Part shown: positions 18,904 through 58,951 of the stretch, piece after piece | How the letters are laid out: every line of letters begins with the position of its first letter | Numbering within the stretch: the stretch's first letter is position 1 | Source of the DNA: a virus | Lineage: Duplodnaviria; Caudoviricetes | Length of the DNA stretch: 64,000 nt | Strand: one strand, 5' to 3' | IMG/VR virus record: IMGVR_UViG_3300005611_000002 | Location: 130,646 to 194,645 of that record | The notes under the pieces: model-generated | Database searches by the model: none | What the model was told of the DNA's origin: nothing | What the model saw: the letters and a program-made list of their open reading frames with translations, nothing else | Position numbers and translations under genes: made by a program

Positions 18904-18964
18904 GTGGTAAAGTCATATAAAGGAAGATTTAGACCAAAGAATCCCGAGAAATACAAAGGTGATC
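18904..18964 (+). pseudogene. Displaced original 5' end of gp4
   Basis: Encodes MVKSYKGRFRPKNPEKYKGD, a synonymous-diverged copy of the N-terminus of the intact gp4 at 20048. Confidence 0.8.
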
Positions 18965-18968
18965 TCAC

Positions 18969-19050
18969 CATAAATAAATTGTCAGTCGCGGATGGGGGTC
19001 CCACTGACTCTATGCTTAAACAATTCACGACGAAAGGAACACAGCTTATG
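18969..19050 (+). promoter_or_regulatory. Conserved endonuclease-gene leader, copy 1 (late-promoter-like CATAAATA + hairpin + RBS)
   Basis: Near-identical to 58647-58729 (-) and structurally equivalent to 48172-48249 (-). Confidence 0.75.
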
Positions 19051-20061
19051 TCTATTTATCAGTGTAATATATGCAATAAGTCATTTAAATCTTTAAATGG
19101 GTTAGGAAAACACGTTTCAAAATCTCACGACACCACATCTGAACAATATTATAACAATTTTCATCTTAAGCCCAAAGAAAATATTTGTCAAAATGAATGT
19201 GGTAACAAAACTGATTTTATAAGTATCACATTTGGATATAAGAAATATTGTAATACATGTTCTAGAAGCTTAGGAGCAAAAAAACATCGTAAAAGACTAA
19301 AAGAAGATGAATTAAAGTTTAAACAATTTTCTGACAAGGTTTCTGAAAATCAAAGAAAAATATGGAAATGTCGAGAAATAGACGGTACTGCTGAGGAAAT
19401 AAAAAGTAAAATAGGACAAACAATATCTAAATCCAGAACTAATATGACAAAGGATGAAAGATCTAAAAAATTTGGATGGTTAAATAAATTAGAAGAACAC
19501 GAAAGATTAGAAAAAATAGAAATTATCACTGAGCCGCTGAAAAATTTTTGGAAAGATCCAAATAACAGACTCGAAAAAACGGAAGTGATAAAACGAAGAA
19601 GTCATACCATGAAATCTAAAACAAAAAGTAAAAAAATAGAAATTGCAGAAAAAAAGCTTATTAAAAGATATGGGTTGACAAAAGAAAAGGCTAAAAAATG
19701 GTATGATAATAAATACGACAAAGAATCATATTATAAAGCAGTTTGGGAAATAACCAATTTATCTTATTTTTATTGCTTAGGAGATATTGATCCGCTTAGA
19801 TTGAGGGGCAAACTGCACAATGGTATAGTGTACGTTCTAGATCACATTTTAAGTATTATGCAAGGATTTTTAAATGATATAGATCCTTATATTATTGGCC
19901 ATCCTTGCAACTTACAAATTTTGGAAAATGATGTAAATTTATATAAATCAGCAAATTGTTGGATTACTTTCGAAACTTTGAACGAAAATATAAAGCGATA
20001 CAACTTACAACATAAAAACAAATTATATATGAAAGTTCTACAAGCAGATGGCACGCTATAA
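19048..20061 (+). CDS. Putative homing endonuclease (C2H2 zinc finger N-terminus, HNH-like C-terminus)
   Basis: CNIC..F.....LGKH...SH finger, LDHI...HPCNLQ...N..K; very AT-rich; RBS AAAGGA before ATG 19048 (track ORF begins at 18904 in frame). Confidence 0.7.
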   Translation: MSIYQCNICNKSFKSLNGLGKHVSKSHDTTSEQYYNNFHLKPKENICQNECGNKTDFISITFGYKKYCNTCSRSLGAKKHRKRLKEDELKFKQFSDKVSENQRKIWKCREIDGTAEEIKSKIGQTISKSRTNMTKDERSKKFGWLNKLEEHERLEKIEIITEPLKNFWKDPNNRLEKTEVIKRRSHTMKSKTKSKKIEIAEKKLIKRYGLTKEKAKKWYDNKYDKESYYKAVWEITNLSYFYCLGDIDPLRLRGKLHNGIVYVLDHILSIMQGFLNDIDPYIIGHPCNLQILENDVNLYKSANCWITFETLNENIKRYNLQHKNKLYMKVLQADGTL

Positions 20062-20512
20062 TCAGGGTAGATTTCGCCCCAAAAATCCCGAGAAATATAA
20101 AGGAGATCCCAGCCGCTGCTACTATCGAAGTTCTTGGGAGTTCAAATTTTTTCGCTATGTTGATCAGCATCCTGATGTGATATGGTGGGCTTCAGAAGAG
20201 TATGTCGTGCCCTATATGTCTCCGATAGACGGAAGAGCGCATCGGTATTTTCCTGATGTTGTCGTGAAAAAGAAAACGCCAGAAGGGACTACTGAAACTG
20301 TTATGATCGAAATCAAACCAAAAGGTCAGACGAGACCGCCCGATCCGCGAAAAAAGAATGCAACAAAAACTGGACGAGTTTCTCGCAAATACATAAACGA
20401 GGTCAAGACATATGGAATTAATGAAGCAAAATGGCGTGCAGCAGAAAGATATTGCGCTGATCGTGGGTGGAAATTCATGCTCATGACTGAAGATCAGTTG
20501 GGAATTAAGTAA
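20048..20512 (+). CDS. gp4: Head completion nuclease gp4
   Basis: YRSSWE..F...D..P.V..W.SEE..PY.SP.D...HRYFPD, EIKP, NEAKW motifs. Confidence 0.93.
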   Translation: MARYNQGRFRPKNPEKYKGDPSRCYYRSSWEFKFFRYVDQHPDVIWWASEEYVVPYMSPIDGRAHRYFPDVVVKKKTPEGTTETVMIEIKPKGQTRPPDPRKKNATKTGRVSRKYINEVKTYGINEAKWRAAERYCADRGWKFMLMTEDQLGIK

Positions 20513-47489: not shown

Positions 47490-47520
47490 AACTTATATCT
47501 CACTAAAATTCCCCTGCCAT

Positions 47521-48174
47521 CTATTTATATTTGCAGTTATCCATATGCCATCTAGCCATAGAATTACCTCTACCTTCCTTTCCGCAGTGTGGACATTTAT
47601 ATTCCTTAAATTTCATACTTTTTCTTGGCTTGCTGAGATTTTTTCTCCATTCTTCAGAACGAATTCCGCGTCCTTCTGGCCAAATTTTTTTACCTTTCAT
47701 TTTCTTGCTGTGTTCTAATGAAGCTCTTTTTTGATTTTCAGTGCGATTTTCTCCTTTGAGCTTTTGCGTCGAATTATCGCTCATGGTATAAGTTGATCCT
47801 AATTCTCTTGGAATTTTTCTGTGTTTTTTAGGATCCAAACCTCTTCTGATATAACCTTCATCACTCTGAAAATTTACATATTCTGTTTGATTTTCATAAA
47901 TATTTTTATCAATACGTACTAGATCTCCTTTAGGGCCAACTGCAGTTATTGAATTTTGTAAATGATGCGTTCCTTTATTTACCTTTTCTTTCTGCAGTTC
48001 GCCTCCCACGAAGGGATGATCTGGAAATGTTTCTTTATCCCAAGTAGCAAACCCATTGGATAGACTTTCATCTCTTATTTTCTGTTGAAATTCTGCGTTA
48101 ATTTCGGCTAATGTTTCTTGTGGTAAACTTTCCACATTCAGAAACTCGCTTATTACGTCTTTATAAATAATCAT
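47521..48174 (-). CDS. Homing-endonuclease-like protein (NUMOD3-like repeats, C-terminal CPHC zinc finger)
   Basis: HS..MKGK, SEEW..NLSK, CPHCGKEG....M.RWH..NC; no clear catalytic motif seen; has the shared leader. Confidence 0.55.
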   Translation of the reverse strand: MIIYKDVISEFLNVESLPQETLAEINAEFQQKIRDESLSNGFATWDKETFPDHPFVGGELQKEKVNKGTHHLQNSITAVGPKGDLVRIDKNIYENQTEYVNFQSDEGYIRRGLDPKKHRKIPRELGSTYTMSDNSTQKLKGENRTENQKRASLEHSKKMKGKKIWPEGRGIRSEEWRKNLSKPRKSMKFKEYKCPHCGKEGRGNSMARWHMDNCKYK

Positions 48175-48249
48175 GCTGGAACTCCTCTGTTGTTCTAGAG
48201 TAGGCAGGGATTCTTGGCGGTCTCCCGTGGCCTACATGACTTATTTATA
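48172..48249 (-). promoter_or_regulatory. Conserved endonuclease-gene leader, copy 3
   Basis: TATAAATA then GTAGGC-CAC-GGGA-loop-TCCC-T-GCCTAC-TCTA ... GAGGAG..CAGCATG. Confidence 0.7.
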
Positions 48250-48254
48250 AAGCA

Positions 48255-48701
48255 TCAAAATTCTCCAGCTTGAAAACGCAGCATGTCAATCATTGACTTG
48301 ATTACGAAGTTCCTATTATTTATTTGGCGGATAATGCTTTCAAGATAGTTGGCTTGCTCTTCGTGAAAGGCGATCTTGAGACTCAGATTGATCACGTCTT
48401 TATCGCTCTGTATGTATCTATCAAGATCGTTTCGAAGTATCTTGAGCGGATTTGGCTTCCAACCGCGTTCCTTGAGTTCTTCTTCACACATTGAACCGTT
48501 GTAGTACTCAATCTTTGCTCGTTCGAGTTCTTTTAGGTCAGACTTGAGTTTCTTGACTCGAAGTGCTTCCTTGAAGAAAAGATTGTAGTATTTGCTATGA
48601 AGTTCTGGAATTCTTCTTGCTTCGCTTACAAGGTTTGCTTCGTCAATTTTGCAGTCCTTCGACCACATTGTATTGATATCGTCAGTCATTAATTCCTCCA
48701 T
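48255..48701 (-). CDS. uvsY: Recombination mediator UvsY
   Basis: W..D..ID, IP.LHSKY, I..R.F.IK..ID..RF.AG motifs; next to uvsW. Confidence 0.9.
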   Translation of the reverse strand: MEELMTDDINTMWSKDCKIDEANLVSEARRIPELHSKYYNLFFKEALRVKKLKSDLKELERAKIEYYNGSMCEEELKERGWKPNPLKILRNDLDRYIQSDKDVINLSLKIAFHEEQANYLESIIRQINNRNFVIKSMIDMLRFQAGEF

Positions 48702-54995: not shown

Positions 54996-55053
54996 CATAG
55001 AGAACATGAAATGTATAAATAGTACTGAAGAGGTAAAACTATAGGTACATTTC

Positions 55054-55671
55054 ATGTTCTACACAATTTATAAAATAACTAATAAGATCAACGGCAAAAT
55101 CTACATTGGTAAACATCAGACCAAAGACCTAAATGATGGATATATGGGCTCAGGTAAACTCATAATAGCAGCTATTGAAAAATATGGAATTGATAATTTT
55201 GAAAAAGAAATTCTCTTTCAATTCGATAGTGAAACTGATATGGACACCAAAGAAGCTGAACTGGTAACTGACGAATTTGTGAAAGAAGATACCAACTATA
55301 ATCTTTGCCCTGGCGGTAAAGGTGGTTGGGGGTATATCAACTCTAATGATTTATCGCCAAGATTTGCAAACTATGTAGGCACTAAAAAGTACAAAGAATG
55401 GTCAGCAAAGGGTGGCAAAAAAACAGGAAGAGTGAATATCACTAATGCCCATTTAGAAGGTAAAATAAGATATGATACCTTTACTGGTAAAACACATAGT
55501 GATGAAACCAAAAGAAAAATATCCGAAGCAAACTCTAAAATAACTGGTTCTAAAAACTCTCAATATGGTACTATGTGGATTACTAATGGTAAAGAGAATA
55601 AAAAAATAAAAAAAGATGTCGATAGTATACCAGAAGGATGGTATAAAGGTAGAAAAATAATGCTTCCGTAG
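55054..55671 (+). CDS. Seg-like GIY-YIG homing endonuclease with NUMOD3
   Basis: TIYKITN.INGKIYIGKH, YMGSG, YNL..GG.GG, GKTHSDETKRKIS; TATAAATA at 55014. Confidence 0.92.
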   Translation: MFYTIYKITNKINGKIYIGKHQTKDLNDGYMGSGKLIIAAIEKYGIDNFEKEILFQFDSETDMDTKEAELVTDEFVKEDTNYNLCPGGKGGWGYINSNDLSPRFANYVGTKKYKEWSAKGGKKTGRVNITNAHLEGKIRYDTFTGKTHSDETKRKISEANSKITGSKNSQYGTMWITNGKENKKIKKDVDSIPEGWYKGRKIMLP

Positions 55672-57077: not shown

Positions 57078-57702
57078 TGAAGTTTATCGGCGGTTTAGCA
57101 AGATCTATCCGCCTTCAAGTCGTTTTGTACCCGAGTCAAAGATACACGCAGATCCATTTCGTAGCCTCGTAGGAGTTGTACTTTCTGCTCAAACGAGAGA
57201 TGAAATGACTGCTCGTGCTTGTAACAACCTTTTTGCAATTACTGATACACCTAAAGGCGTGCTTGAGTTGACCGATGAACGTTTAGTAGAATGCATTCGT
57301 CCTGTCGGTATGTATAATAACAAAGCAAAAAATCTCAAGAAGATGTGCACTCAACTCATCGAAAGACATAGCGGCCAAGTTCCTAAGACGCGTTCTGAGT
57401 TAATGGCTCTTGCTGGAGTTGGAAGAAAGTCGACTGATATTATGATGCGCTTTGTATACCACGAAGGTGCTATTGCGGTTGATACACATGTTCATAGACT
57501 ATCAAACAGACTTGGATTGGTGAATACGCCTTCTGCTGACGTGACCGCAGACTTTCTTGCTGAGAATACGCCCGAGCAGTTCAAGATGAGTGCTCACGAA
57601 TGGTTTATCAACTATGGCAAGTACGTATGTAAAGCAAGGTCACCGCGGTGCTCTGAGTGCATCTTCACAGATATTTGCAACTACTACGAAAAAACTTGTT
57701 GA
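57064..57702 (+). CDS. nth: Endonuclease III (HhH-GPD glycosylase, 4Fe-4S)
   Basis: LSAQT.D, L.GVGRK, AVDTHV.R...RLG, C......C..C.....C. Confidence 0.93.
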   Translation: MTKIDEVYRRFSKIYPPSSRFVPESKIHADPFRSLVGVVLSAQTRDEMTARACNNLFAITDTPKGVLELTDERLVECIRPVGMYNNKAKNLKKMCTQLIERHSGQVPKTRSELMALAGVGRKSTDIMMRFVYHEGAIAVDTHVHRLSNRLGLVNTPSADVTADFLAENTPEQFKMSAHEWFINYGKYVCKARSPRCSECIFTDICNYYEKTC

Positions 57703-57754
57703 CATTTCATTCTGGTTGGTATAGTATGATAATGAAATAACATGGAGAATCACC

Positions 57755-57790
57755 TTGTCTAAACAAGAAGACTTTCGTATTTTGACAGCT
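57755..57790 (+). pseudogene. Displaced original 5' end of gp39
   Basis: TTG start with GGAG RBS and upstream TTGACA promoter; encodes (M)SKQEDFRILTA versus (M)SKNEFKILTP of the intact gene. Confidence 0.75.
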
Positions 57791-58649
57791 ACACATTAGC
57801 TCTACCTGGAAAATATCCTTCTGGTATTTTTTGATCGGGCTTTATTCTTATATTCTTATGCCCATTATTATACCACTTTGAACCAGTCGTAGGATTGTTT
57901 TTCTTCATCCATTCTGAGTGTCTTTCTCTAGCAGTCATTCCATTTTCGTCTTTTTCGTTGTCCAATTTTTTGTTGAGCTTATTTTGACGTTCTAACCACA
58001 CTTTTTCATTTTTCTTTATATACCTTTTTCTGCCTTCCGATATTTTCTTTGCATTTTCTGGTTTGCATGACGGATTTTTATTTCCTCGGCGTTTCATACC
58101 AGATTTTTGATATAAGTTCAATCCAGTTTTTTCATCTATTTTAGACATTGTTTTTGCCATGTTGCGACTTCTTATAGAAATTAGATCAGGATTATTTTTT
58201 AGAGCTTTTTCATAAGCACGTTGAAAACAATTTTTACCATCAACTATATCTTTCATTTTGGTTTCTGCACCTTTGATAGCTCCTTTTTCATATGATGTTT
58301 TCCCATCATTATCTGCAATTTTTCTAACTTCTGGATTATATAATGCGAGACCGTCATTATTATGACAATTATAAAATTTTGGATTATTTCTAGCATCTAC
58401 CTTTTCAAGAAATTTCGTTTCGTGGTTATATGCTGATTCTGCAGTATCAAATACCTTTATTTTTCGAACTATAAAACTTTTCAAACCACTTTTTCTTATG
58501 ATTTCATTTACTATTTTTGACGACGTTGTATATCCATCCTCTGTCATAAATTTTGCTGGATTTGCACCTTGACCATATTTGCTACCAGCATAAAACTTAC
58601 CGGTAGACACTTCTTGAATGATGTAGAAATAGGGTATATAAATAGGCAT
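57789..58649 (-). CDS. Seg-like GIY-YIG homing endonuclease
   Basis: PYFYII......FYAGS, Y.TSS, E...L......N..FYN, C-terminal WYNNG...IP.G...GR; RBS before ATG 58649. Confidence 0.85.
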   Translation of the reverse strand: MPIYIPYFYIIQEVSTGKFYAGSKYGQGANPAKFMTEDGYTTSSKIVNEIIRKSGLKSFIVRKIKVFDTAESAYNHETKFLEKVDARNNPKFYNCHNNDGLALYNPEVRKIADNDGKTSYEKGAIKGAETKMKDIVDGKNCFQRAYEKALKNNPDLISIRSRNMAKTMSKIDEKTGLNLYQKSGMKRRGNKNPSCKPENAKKISEGRKRYIKKNEKVWLERQNKLNKKLDNEKDENGMTARERHSEWMKKNNPTTGSKWYNNGHKNIRIKPDQKIPEGYFPGRANV

Positions 58650-58729
58650 AAGCTGTGTTCCTTTCGTTGTAAAGTGTTCGAACATAGAGTCAGTAGGACC
58701 GCCATCCGTGACTGACATTTTTATTTATA
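58647..58729 (-). promoter_or_regulatory. Conserved endonuclease-gene leader, copy 2
   Basis: TATAAATA-aaaat-GTCAGT-CAC-GGA-tggcgg-TCC-T-ACTGAC-TCTA...ACGAAAGGAACACAGCTTATG. Confidence 0.75.
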
Positions 58730-58951
58730 AAATGGAATATTTACCGTGGAAAATCATTGGAACACTTTATCACATCAAACGCAGCTAAAATATCTTGAAA
58801 AAGCGTTATATCTCATTCAAAATGGGTATTCAAATAATACGAACGTAGAAGATTTAGCTATGTCTATCGCGCACTCAGAGTCCAAAAAAAGTGGTTGACA
58901 CTTTATCGCTCGTATGATATTATCAAAATATATGATGGAAAGGAATCAGTA

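Follow-up and report, generated by a model that had tools for sequence, protein, structure and literature searches.

T4-like phages carry homing endonucleases as their main mobile elements, and several described regulatory systems invite comparison with the leaders examined here. In IS10/Tn10, the promoter pOUT lies inside the 5' end of the transposase gene, facing pIN, and the short, folded RNA-OUT covers the ribosome site of RNA-IN. The SymR/SymE pair of E. coli is a cis-antisense pair resembling type I toxin-antitoxin systems, and sar of phage P22 is likewise an antisense RNA.

Within T4-like phages, hairpins bypassed by a late promoter have been described for T4 gene e, I-TevI/II/III, segB and Aeh1 mobE, and reviews of T4 endonuclease regulation describe only sense-strand hairpins (PMC3014915, PMC2988022). 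The sole antisense RNA reported in a T4-like phage is CfrI of cyanophage S-PM2 (Millard et al. 2010, cited in PMC2984593), which is ~225 nt long and opposes a homing endonuclease gene; the S-PM2 late promoter is reported as NATAAATA (PMC2984593). PeSL cassettes join an early promoter to a terminator-like stem-loop and are associated with ORFs of hyperplastic regions (PMC2839356, PMC4122927).

The stretch analysed here (the window) is the final 64 kb, or 64,000 nucleotides, of a 194,645-bp IMG/VR record with direct terminal repeats, which is estimated to be complete and has 39% G+C. The source genome is T4-like, encoding UvsW-like, UvsY-like, head-closure (gp4-like) and baseplate proteins, and the topoisomerase large subunit of this phage shares less than 50% identity with every GenBank phage. 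A preliminary description had drawn attention to hairpin leaders at three endonuclease-like genes; all three were found again in place (Table 1), and they are copies of a portable ~90-bp cassette heading endonuclease genes.

With IS10 RNA-OUT, the cassette shares association with the nuclease or transposase gene of a mobile element, putative convergent promoters and a predicted antisense transcript covering the ribosome site, which would curb a potentially harmful enzyme. It differs from IS10 in that its promoter motifs are of the phage late type, the overlap spans the whole leader, two hairpins are present and several endonuclease families are involved, and there is no similarity between the two in sequence or model. 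As in SymR and P22 sar, an antisense promoter is predicted in or next to the first codons, with a predicted product of ~70-80 nt over the Shine-Dalgarno sequence (SD) and AUG, whereas SymR and sar are chromosomal or prophage single-copy systems with sigma-70 promoters rather than a multi-copy portable cassette with covarying stems.

The likeness to systems of T4-like phages is similarly partial. As with the bypass hairpins, a late promoter lies directly upstream of the endonuclease gene and is able to pair with the start region; those hairpins, however, are idiosyncratic and very stable sense-strand structures that bury the SD and AUG, whereas the corresponding pairing of the cassette (P0) consists of 7 A-U pairs, and the cassette hairpins lie downstream of the promoter, with the fold selected on the other strand. 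CfrI links its endonuclease gene to psbA and has no known conserved fold. PeSL elements are also short, repeated promoter and stem-loop modules, mobile between gene contexts in T4-like genomes, but they are not tied to endonuclease genes and have no late promoter, convergent promoters or start-codon overlap; conversely, the cassettes carry a late-type motif, show no sigma-70-like site over their length and have a sense-strand U tail in only 5 of 114 leaders. Searched at E <= 1, the covariance model of the cassette has no match in the six cultured T4-like phages S-PM2, Vibrio phage SRILMA, T4, Aeh1, KVP40 or Aeromonas phage 25; CfrI, mobE and seg43(25) are ruled out as instances of this cassette by the negative result in their phages.

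A scan against Rfam 15, proposed at the outset as a check of novelty, assigned the cassette to no described family: at the gathering score the window matches tRNAs only, and four cassette loci searched at E <= 1 returned two chance sRNA matches, at about half their cut-offs. No description of the cassette was found in full-text literature searches, the unnamed candidates of a 2023 viral structured-RNA survey (PMC10690425) being outside this comparison.

Anatomy of the cassette and covariation of its stems

The elements of the cassette follow one another in the order ATAAATA, spacer, hairpin H1, a single U, hairpin H2, C, 0-4 nt, start codon and TATTTAT. Of 114 leaders, 70 have a spacer of 5 nt between ATAAATA and H1, 25 have one of 3 nt and 14 one of 4 nt. 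On its 5' side, H1 begins with GU and four variable bases, followed by C-R-C opposite one pyrimidine; the middle R pairs with this pyrimidine, leaving two bulged C on the gene strand, and the tip comprises an inner stem opening with GG and a variable loop. H2 is formed by CUA and five variable bases paired to five bases and CAG, and the SD is shared between the H2 loop and 3' arm. The stems covary, whereas the unpaired nucleotides, namely both bulges, the single linking U, CUA/CAG and the C that follows it, are nearly invariant.

The elements first described at the three sites, namely ATAAATA, a spacer of 4-6 nt, a 6-bp stem, a CRC bulge, TCTA, an SD and CAGC(N0-2)ATG, are all present, and the stems are indeed GTCAGT/ACTGAC twice and GTAGGC/GCCTAC once, with an inner stem of GGA/TCC or GGGA/TCCC. 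The conserved unit nevertheless continues through codons 2-4. The second covarying hairpin, H2, had been overlooked, as had the inward-facing promoter-like motif in those codons, and the two alter the proposed mechanism.

TATTTAT, the reverse complement of the late-promoter heptamer ATAAATA, spans codons 2-4. If one mismatch is allowed, 100 of 105 leaders have this inner heptamer, and a single mismatch (TATATAT or TATTTAC) does occur in about 30% of leaders. Counted from the ATG, the heptamer falls in each of the three frames (79/15/6); CAGC and TATTTAT are separated by 5 nt in 61 leaders and by 6 nt in 19, and leaders with the start codon upstream of CAGC still keep both CAGC and TATTTAT. Conservation of the heptamer thus acts at the nucleotide level and not at the protein level.

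One and the same stem can carry the H1 tip in either orientation, with CGCCAA/TTGGCG and CGGCAA/TTGCCG loops (for example IMG/VR loci L001 vs L026, L002 vs L027), which points to inversion of hairpin tips and to little strand-specific selection on the sequence of the loop.

Covariation in the stems is overwhelming. In a structure-based alignment of 101 distinct leaders, 92.6% of cells pair, compared with 77.6 +/- 0.4% in shuffles, and double-change cells number 329, compared with 76. The covariation score is 0.363 against 0.088, with 0 of 500 shuffles as high, although these statistics ignore kinship and many leaders are related; every slid register pairs at 44% or less. The covariance-model alignment of the 101 leaders was fitted to the structure, whereas the anchored counts, with 112 of 114 outer stems fully paired and 24 stem types, were not fitted and yet agree. 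Each of the H2 pairs 1-5 lies above all 1000 shuffles, with four or five pair types apiece. RNAalifold on a MAFFT alignment returned H1 only, H2 and P0 being recovered by anchoring on the invariant motifs or via the covariance-model alignment, and the single-sequence folding z-scores of the window copies (-0.5 to -1.6, both strands) are not significant.

Table 1. Positions of the three cassettes, their predicted antisense RNAs and neighbouring features in the window
Feature	Position	Strand	Remark
Cassette 1	18970-19059	+	covariance model 55.8 bits, E 1e-11
Cassette 1, ATAAATA	18970-18976	+	
Cassette 1, H1	18981-19008	+	
Cassette 1, linker U	19009	+	
Cassette 1, H2 arms	19010-19015, 19039-19044	+	
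Cassette 1, CAGC	19042-19045	+	
Cassette 1, ATG	19048	+	
Cassette 1, TATTTAT	19053-19059	+	
Cassette 1 gene	19048-20061	+	337-aa Zn-finger endonuclease-like
Predicted antisense RNA 1	18968-19047	-	both ends predicted; promoter motif ATAAATA 19059-19053; H2', then H1', then U-rich tail over sense promoter
Orphan 5' stub of head-closure (gp4-like) gene	18904-18968	+	abuts cassette 1; complete gene 20048-20512
Cassette 2	58638-58728	-	covariance model 64.2 bits
Cassette 2, ATAAATA	58728-58722	-	
Cassette 2, H1	58716-58689	-	
Cassette 2, CTA	58687-58685	-	
Cassette 2, CAGC	58655-58652	-	
Cassette 2, ATG	58649	-	
Cassette 2, TATTTAT	58644-58638	-	
Cassette 2 gene	58649-57789	-	286-aa GIY-YIG-like
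Predicted antisense RNA 2	58650-58730	+	both ends predicted; promoter motif 58638-58644
Cassette 3	48163-48248	-	covariance model 69.9 bits
Cassette 3, ATAAATA	48248-48242	-	
Cassette 3, H1	48235-48200	-	
Cassette 3, CTA	48198-48196	-	
Cassette 3, CAGC	48178-48175	-	
Cassette 3, ATG	48174	-	
Cassette 3, TATTTAT	48169-48163	-	
Cassette 3 gene	48174-47521	-	217 aa, C-terminal CPHC...HMDNCK zinc finger
Predicted antisense RNA 3	48175-48250	+	promoter motif 48163-48169, 5-nt spacer, predicted +1 G 48175
AGEF-stop repeat, site 3	47503-47517, 48255-48269	-	recoded, 4 codons
tRNA-array GIY-YIG endonuclease gene	55054-55671	+	
Hairpin of tRNA-array GIY-YIG gene	55000-55060		on the + strand; 16 bp, buries AUG
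TATAAATA in 5' arm of that hairpin	55014-55021		

Spread, cargo genes and insertion sites

A loose scan of the source genome (ATAAATA, any 6-bp stem and TCTA) returned 7 copies, and the covariance model returned 8, of which 3 lie in the window and the eighth has CCTA for TCTA. Copies 7 and 8 (source record 57219-58834, - strand, outside the window) belong to tandem paralogous HNH endonuclease genes with one cassette each. The recurrence of the motif is far in excess of chance. Beyond this genome, an IMG/VR pattern search in which four variable stem positions were left free matched at least 119 viral contigs; 112 of 114 distinct leaders show full pairing at these four positions, with 24 stem types, and the covariance model, applied to the first 100 loci, found 111 copies, including nine missed by the pattern. 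One complete phage of 360,683 bp, which has direct terminal repeats and encodes a T4-type Gp23 major capsid protein (G001, contig of L066), carries 13 cassettes, and a 142-kb viral fragment carries 12. Several 140-kb fragments rated ~40% complete point to further T4-like phages of ~350 kb.

The same pattern produced 50 matches in bacterial and archaeal genome contigs, 10 of them with a perfect stem; CAGC is followed up by a start codon in all ten of the latter, nine of which also possess a TATTTAT-like heptamer. The remaining 40 matches have imperfect stems and hence serve as a partial negative control only, judged on the stem alone. The ten cassettes on MAG contigs (L150, L152, L156, L166, L168, L171, L174, L178, L179, L187) are located on seven contigs of less than 4 kb and three of 42 to 132 kb, in bins of Actinomycetota, Haliscomenobacter, Nitrosomonadales, Luteolibacter, Terrimicrobiaceae and others. 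Because these bins belong to unrelated phyla, the MAG cassettes probably represent mis-binned (T4-like) phage DNA. Among ~50,700 GenBank phages, neither a megablast search with site 1 nor a blastn search with a consensus-like leader returned anything, the method being insensitive for 90-nt motifs.

All 8 copies in the source genome precede ORFs of 217-337 aa, and 6 of these 8 ORFs match PHROG homing-endonuclease or HNH families. Among 93 complete downstream ORFs, matches were obtained to NUMOD3 (32), HNH families (12, 8 and 6), GIY-YIG (8 and 5) and a TnsA-like nuclease domain (2), while PHROG homing-endonuclease family 314 was matched by 45 of these ORFs and family 655 by 32. Between leaders 1 and 2, 79 of 91 positions (87%) are identical and the encoded proteins share nothing significant, so the cassette is modular. 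The tabulation of downstream ORFs, together with the covariation, supports the original proposal of a portable, covarying module tied to unrelated endonuclease families. The labels first given to the three window genes (ZnF-HNH, GIY-YIG and NUMOD3/ZnF) could be verified only in part: gene 1 matches a C2H2 zinc finger and unnamed PHROGs and nothing else, gene 2 has a weak match to a homing-endonuclease PHROG, and gene 3 matches no domain or PHROG.

A C-terminal zinc-finger module, CPHC...(Y/R)H(F/M)DNCK (47521-47600, - strand; L120, L121, L126), is common to the cassette-led proteins 3, 4, 5 and 8, whose N-terminal halves differ (no match, GIY-YIG-like, HNH). A remnant that has lost its nuclease is one possible view of protein 3. 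Head-closure PHROG 218, the family of the gp4-like gene beside cassette 1 in the window, is matched at E 3e-59 by two of the 93 ORFs downstream of a cassette, and these could be either fusions or cassettes left directly before the invaded gene.

Duplication of a gene terminus, claimed for all three sites, is clear at site 1, minimal at site 3 and undetected at site 2. At site 1, the 17-aa orphan stub matches the full head-closure gene with E 4e-7 (18904-18968 vs 20048-20112), with 80% identity over 51 nt; the stub of this gp4-like gene (phrog_218) is recoded and its frame runs into cassette 1, an arrangement consistent with an endonuclease element bringing a replacement 5' end for the invaded gene. 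Site 3 has a recoded 4-codon AGEF-stop repeat, which is the end of the UvsY-like gene, with a copy between uvsW and the stop of endonuclease-like gene 3, directly behind the latter. At site 2, neither the DNA-repeat search nor tblastn revealed a terminus duplication. The broader notion of a family of terminus-replacing elements thus holds clearly at one of the three sites only.

Strand of the selected fold and candidate modes of action

On the gene strand, the 1010 cells of H1 include 31 A.C and 0 G.U, the 702 cells of H2 include 62 A.C or C.A vs 4 G.U, and 97 of 101 leaders have A.C as the third CUA/CAG pair. In total, 190 cells of the A.C type, equivalent to G.U on the antisense strand, stand against 4 G.U on the sense strand; A.C occurs at ten pair positions in many distinct haplotypes and G.U at three positions. 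Read on the opposite strand with wobbles allowed, H1 (then H1') is paired in 1009 of 1010 cells, and the middle pair of the bulge is G-C in 78, A-U in 11 and A.C in 25 cases, and never G.U. The antisense core is predicted to be the more stable in 98 of 105 leaders, with a mean difference of -3.9 kcal/mol (Wilcoxon p 3e-18), compared with a strand difference of 0.0 +/- 3.9 kcal/mol in control random 68-mers of the source genome. The antisense strand also folds better in each of the three window copies, with -22.6 vs -16.9 kcal/mol predicted for copy 3. Because of this wobble asymmetry and these folding energies, the selected fold is assigned to the strand opposite the gene, and not, as initially supposed, to the endonuclease mRNA; the strand call is strong, but less than absolute, since A.C pairs can also form protonated wobbles.

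On balance, we lean towards the reading that the cassette makes a small late cis-antisense RNA holding the nuclease in check. Two putative T4-type late promoters (ATAAATA motifs) would face each other, ~85 bp apart. The outer one would start the endonuclease mRNA at the first base of H1, and the inner one, on the opposite strand in codons 2-4, would start an RNA at the G opposite the invariant CAGC. This antisense RNA, predicted to be ~75-85 nt long, would fold into H2', with a loop that is the complement of the SD, and then H1', with two bulged G, and would presumably have its 3' end in a U-rich tail. Being fully complementary to the SD and start codon of the mRNA, it would block ribosome binding and/or trigger cleavage. 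Pairing of sense and antisense RNA would probably begin with loop-loop contacts, which is plausible because the H2' loop complements the SD presented in the H2 loop, and the potentially self-damaging nuclease would be kept low or shut off late in infection. The sequences themselves show the cassette with its covariation and its tie to endonuclease genes, the strand bias of the fold, and a promoter-like motif at a promoter-like distance; the firing of the inner motif, the RNA ends and the repression itself are elements that we infer.

Several features of the leaders bear on this antisense reading. The outer promoter lies 5 nt from the H1 G in 70 leaders and the inner motif, a match to the consensus only, 5-6 nt from the invariant G, and complementarity to the SD and AUG is provided by the geometry itself, the AUG lying between CAGC and the inner motif. 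Antisense control RNAs, CopA and RNA-OUT among them, typically have bulged stems and complementary loops. At least 5 U within the 8 nt after H1' are present in 110 of 114 leaders on the antisense strand and in 5 of 114 on the sense strand; the random-spacer expectation is 72%, and much of this U-rich tail, which is the complement of the spacer and the outer promoter, is a free by-product of that promoter. A generic terminator scan of both strands of the three window sites made no call, because its rule requires an unbroken stem. If both promoters are of the late type, sense and antisense RNA would be made together, and the regulatory logic is consequently not obvious.

A more far-reaching form of the antisense reading, which we consider improbable, would be a genome-wide antisense network of the type I toxin-antitoxin or addiction-like kind, in which near-identical leaders (1/2, 7/8) would cross-silence one another, the stems would act as specificity codes letting 8-13 endonucleases coexist, each endonuclease would be tolerated only while its own small RNA is made, and incoming matching leaders would meet an RNA-based immunity.

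The main alternative, which we consider doubtful, is a sense-strand switch of the I-TevI or gene e kind. On read-through RNA, the heptamer would pair with UAUUUAU to form P0, closing a three-way junction with H1 and H2 and hiding the start region on early and middle read-through transcripts, whereas late transcripts would start after the 5' arm and be translated, with H1 as a 5'-terminal stabiliser and H2 throttling the SD. The geometry matches the well-documented T4 paradigm (PMC3014915, PMC2988022): ATAAATA itself is the 5' arm of P0, just as a late promoter forms the 5' arm of the bypass hairpins, the late transcript would begin exactly at H1, part of the SD lies inside H2, and the heptamer is kept in all three reading frames. 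Minimum-energy folds were predicted for 7 genome copies, and P0 forms in 6 of these folds, with 12 and 14 bp in two of them. However, extension of P0 beyond its 7 A-U pairs does not exceed that of shuffles across 100 leaders, its mean predicted pair probability is 0.41, and it shifts the accessibility predicted for the start region by no more than from 0.49 to 0.56. Wobble asymmetry and folding energies favour the opposite strand, and the invariant bulges and the A.C mismatch are left unexplained.

In the source genome, 61% of the occurrences of TATAAATA lie 5-100 nt upstream of an ORF start, compared with 9% for its reverse complement, which is the behaviour expected for a T4-type late promoter. 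Both endonuclease genes of the tRNA array have their own TATAAATA and, in agreement with the preliminary description, are without the cassette, the covariance model having no match there. Upstream of the GIY-YIG gene among them, a 16-bp hairpin burying the AUG has a predicted energy of -24.7 kcal/mol (z -7.2) and TATAAATA within its 5' arm, and the predicted late transcript is without the hairpin (-2 kcal/mol); as modelled, this is a textbook switch of the I-TevI or gene e type. The cassette has no comparably stable sense hairpin burying the SD or AUG, P0 being weak beside this far stronger classical hairpin, and the contrast suggests that the cassette works differently. An antisense RNA and a sense switch could nevertheless coexist.

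Two further readings are given very little credence. In one, the template strand would form a single-stranded DNA hairpin during replication or recombination and act in mobility as a hot-spot, fork pause or clamp-loading site; G.T is the best-tolerated DNA mismatch, which fits the strand asymmetry, the two-way H1 tips resemble DNA hairpin inversions, and the cassettes are located at insertion junctions. Such a hairpin has no known precedent in T4-like phages, however, and would leave the promoter-spaced motifs, the SD within H2 and the start-codon coupling unexplained, while endonuclease families of differing cleavage chemistry use the one cassette. The other, which we hold to be just as improbable, is an RNA operator: a common RNA-binding protein of phage or host, for instance a nuclease or a repressor of translation, would read the bulged hairpin and the invariant UCUA or CAGC. 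Near-invariant unpaired nucleotides next to covarying stems are indeed typical of protein or tertiary contacts, but no co-occurring candidate protein was seen in the material examined, the diversity of the encoded endonucleases is too great for them to act as the binder, and such an operator does not account for the inner promoter motif; it is moreover compatible with an antisense RNA needing a chaperone or nuclease, rather than an alternative to it. The earlier suggestion of an autoregulatory operator or a guide-like RNA for the encoded protein is unlikely, and both ideas were rejected, as HNH, GIY-YIG and TnsA-like nucleases, which are unrelated families, share one cassette.

Significance for endonuclease control in T4-like phages

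The tolerance of a phage towards a dozen endonucleases has so far been explained only by one-off mRNA hairpins in a few model phages, and the present analysis adds to these one portable module common to well over a hundred endonuclease genes of unrelated families in uncultured phages. For annotation, the cassette is a compact marker of inserted endonuclease genes and of phage contigs that were wrongly binned with MAGs, and it also provides a small, ready-made part with which toxic genes could be throttled during late phage transcription. Should the antisense RNA prove to be real, no earlier family of conserved structured RNAs would be devoted to the control of homing endonucleases, and only one other antisense RNA would have been reported from a T4-like phage; the cassette would also be a clean natural case of convergent late promoters serving as a regulatory device.
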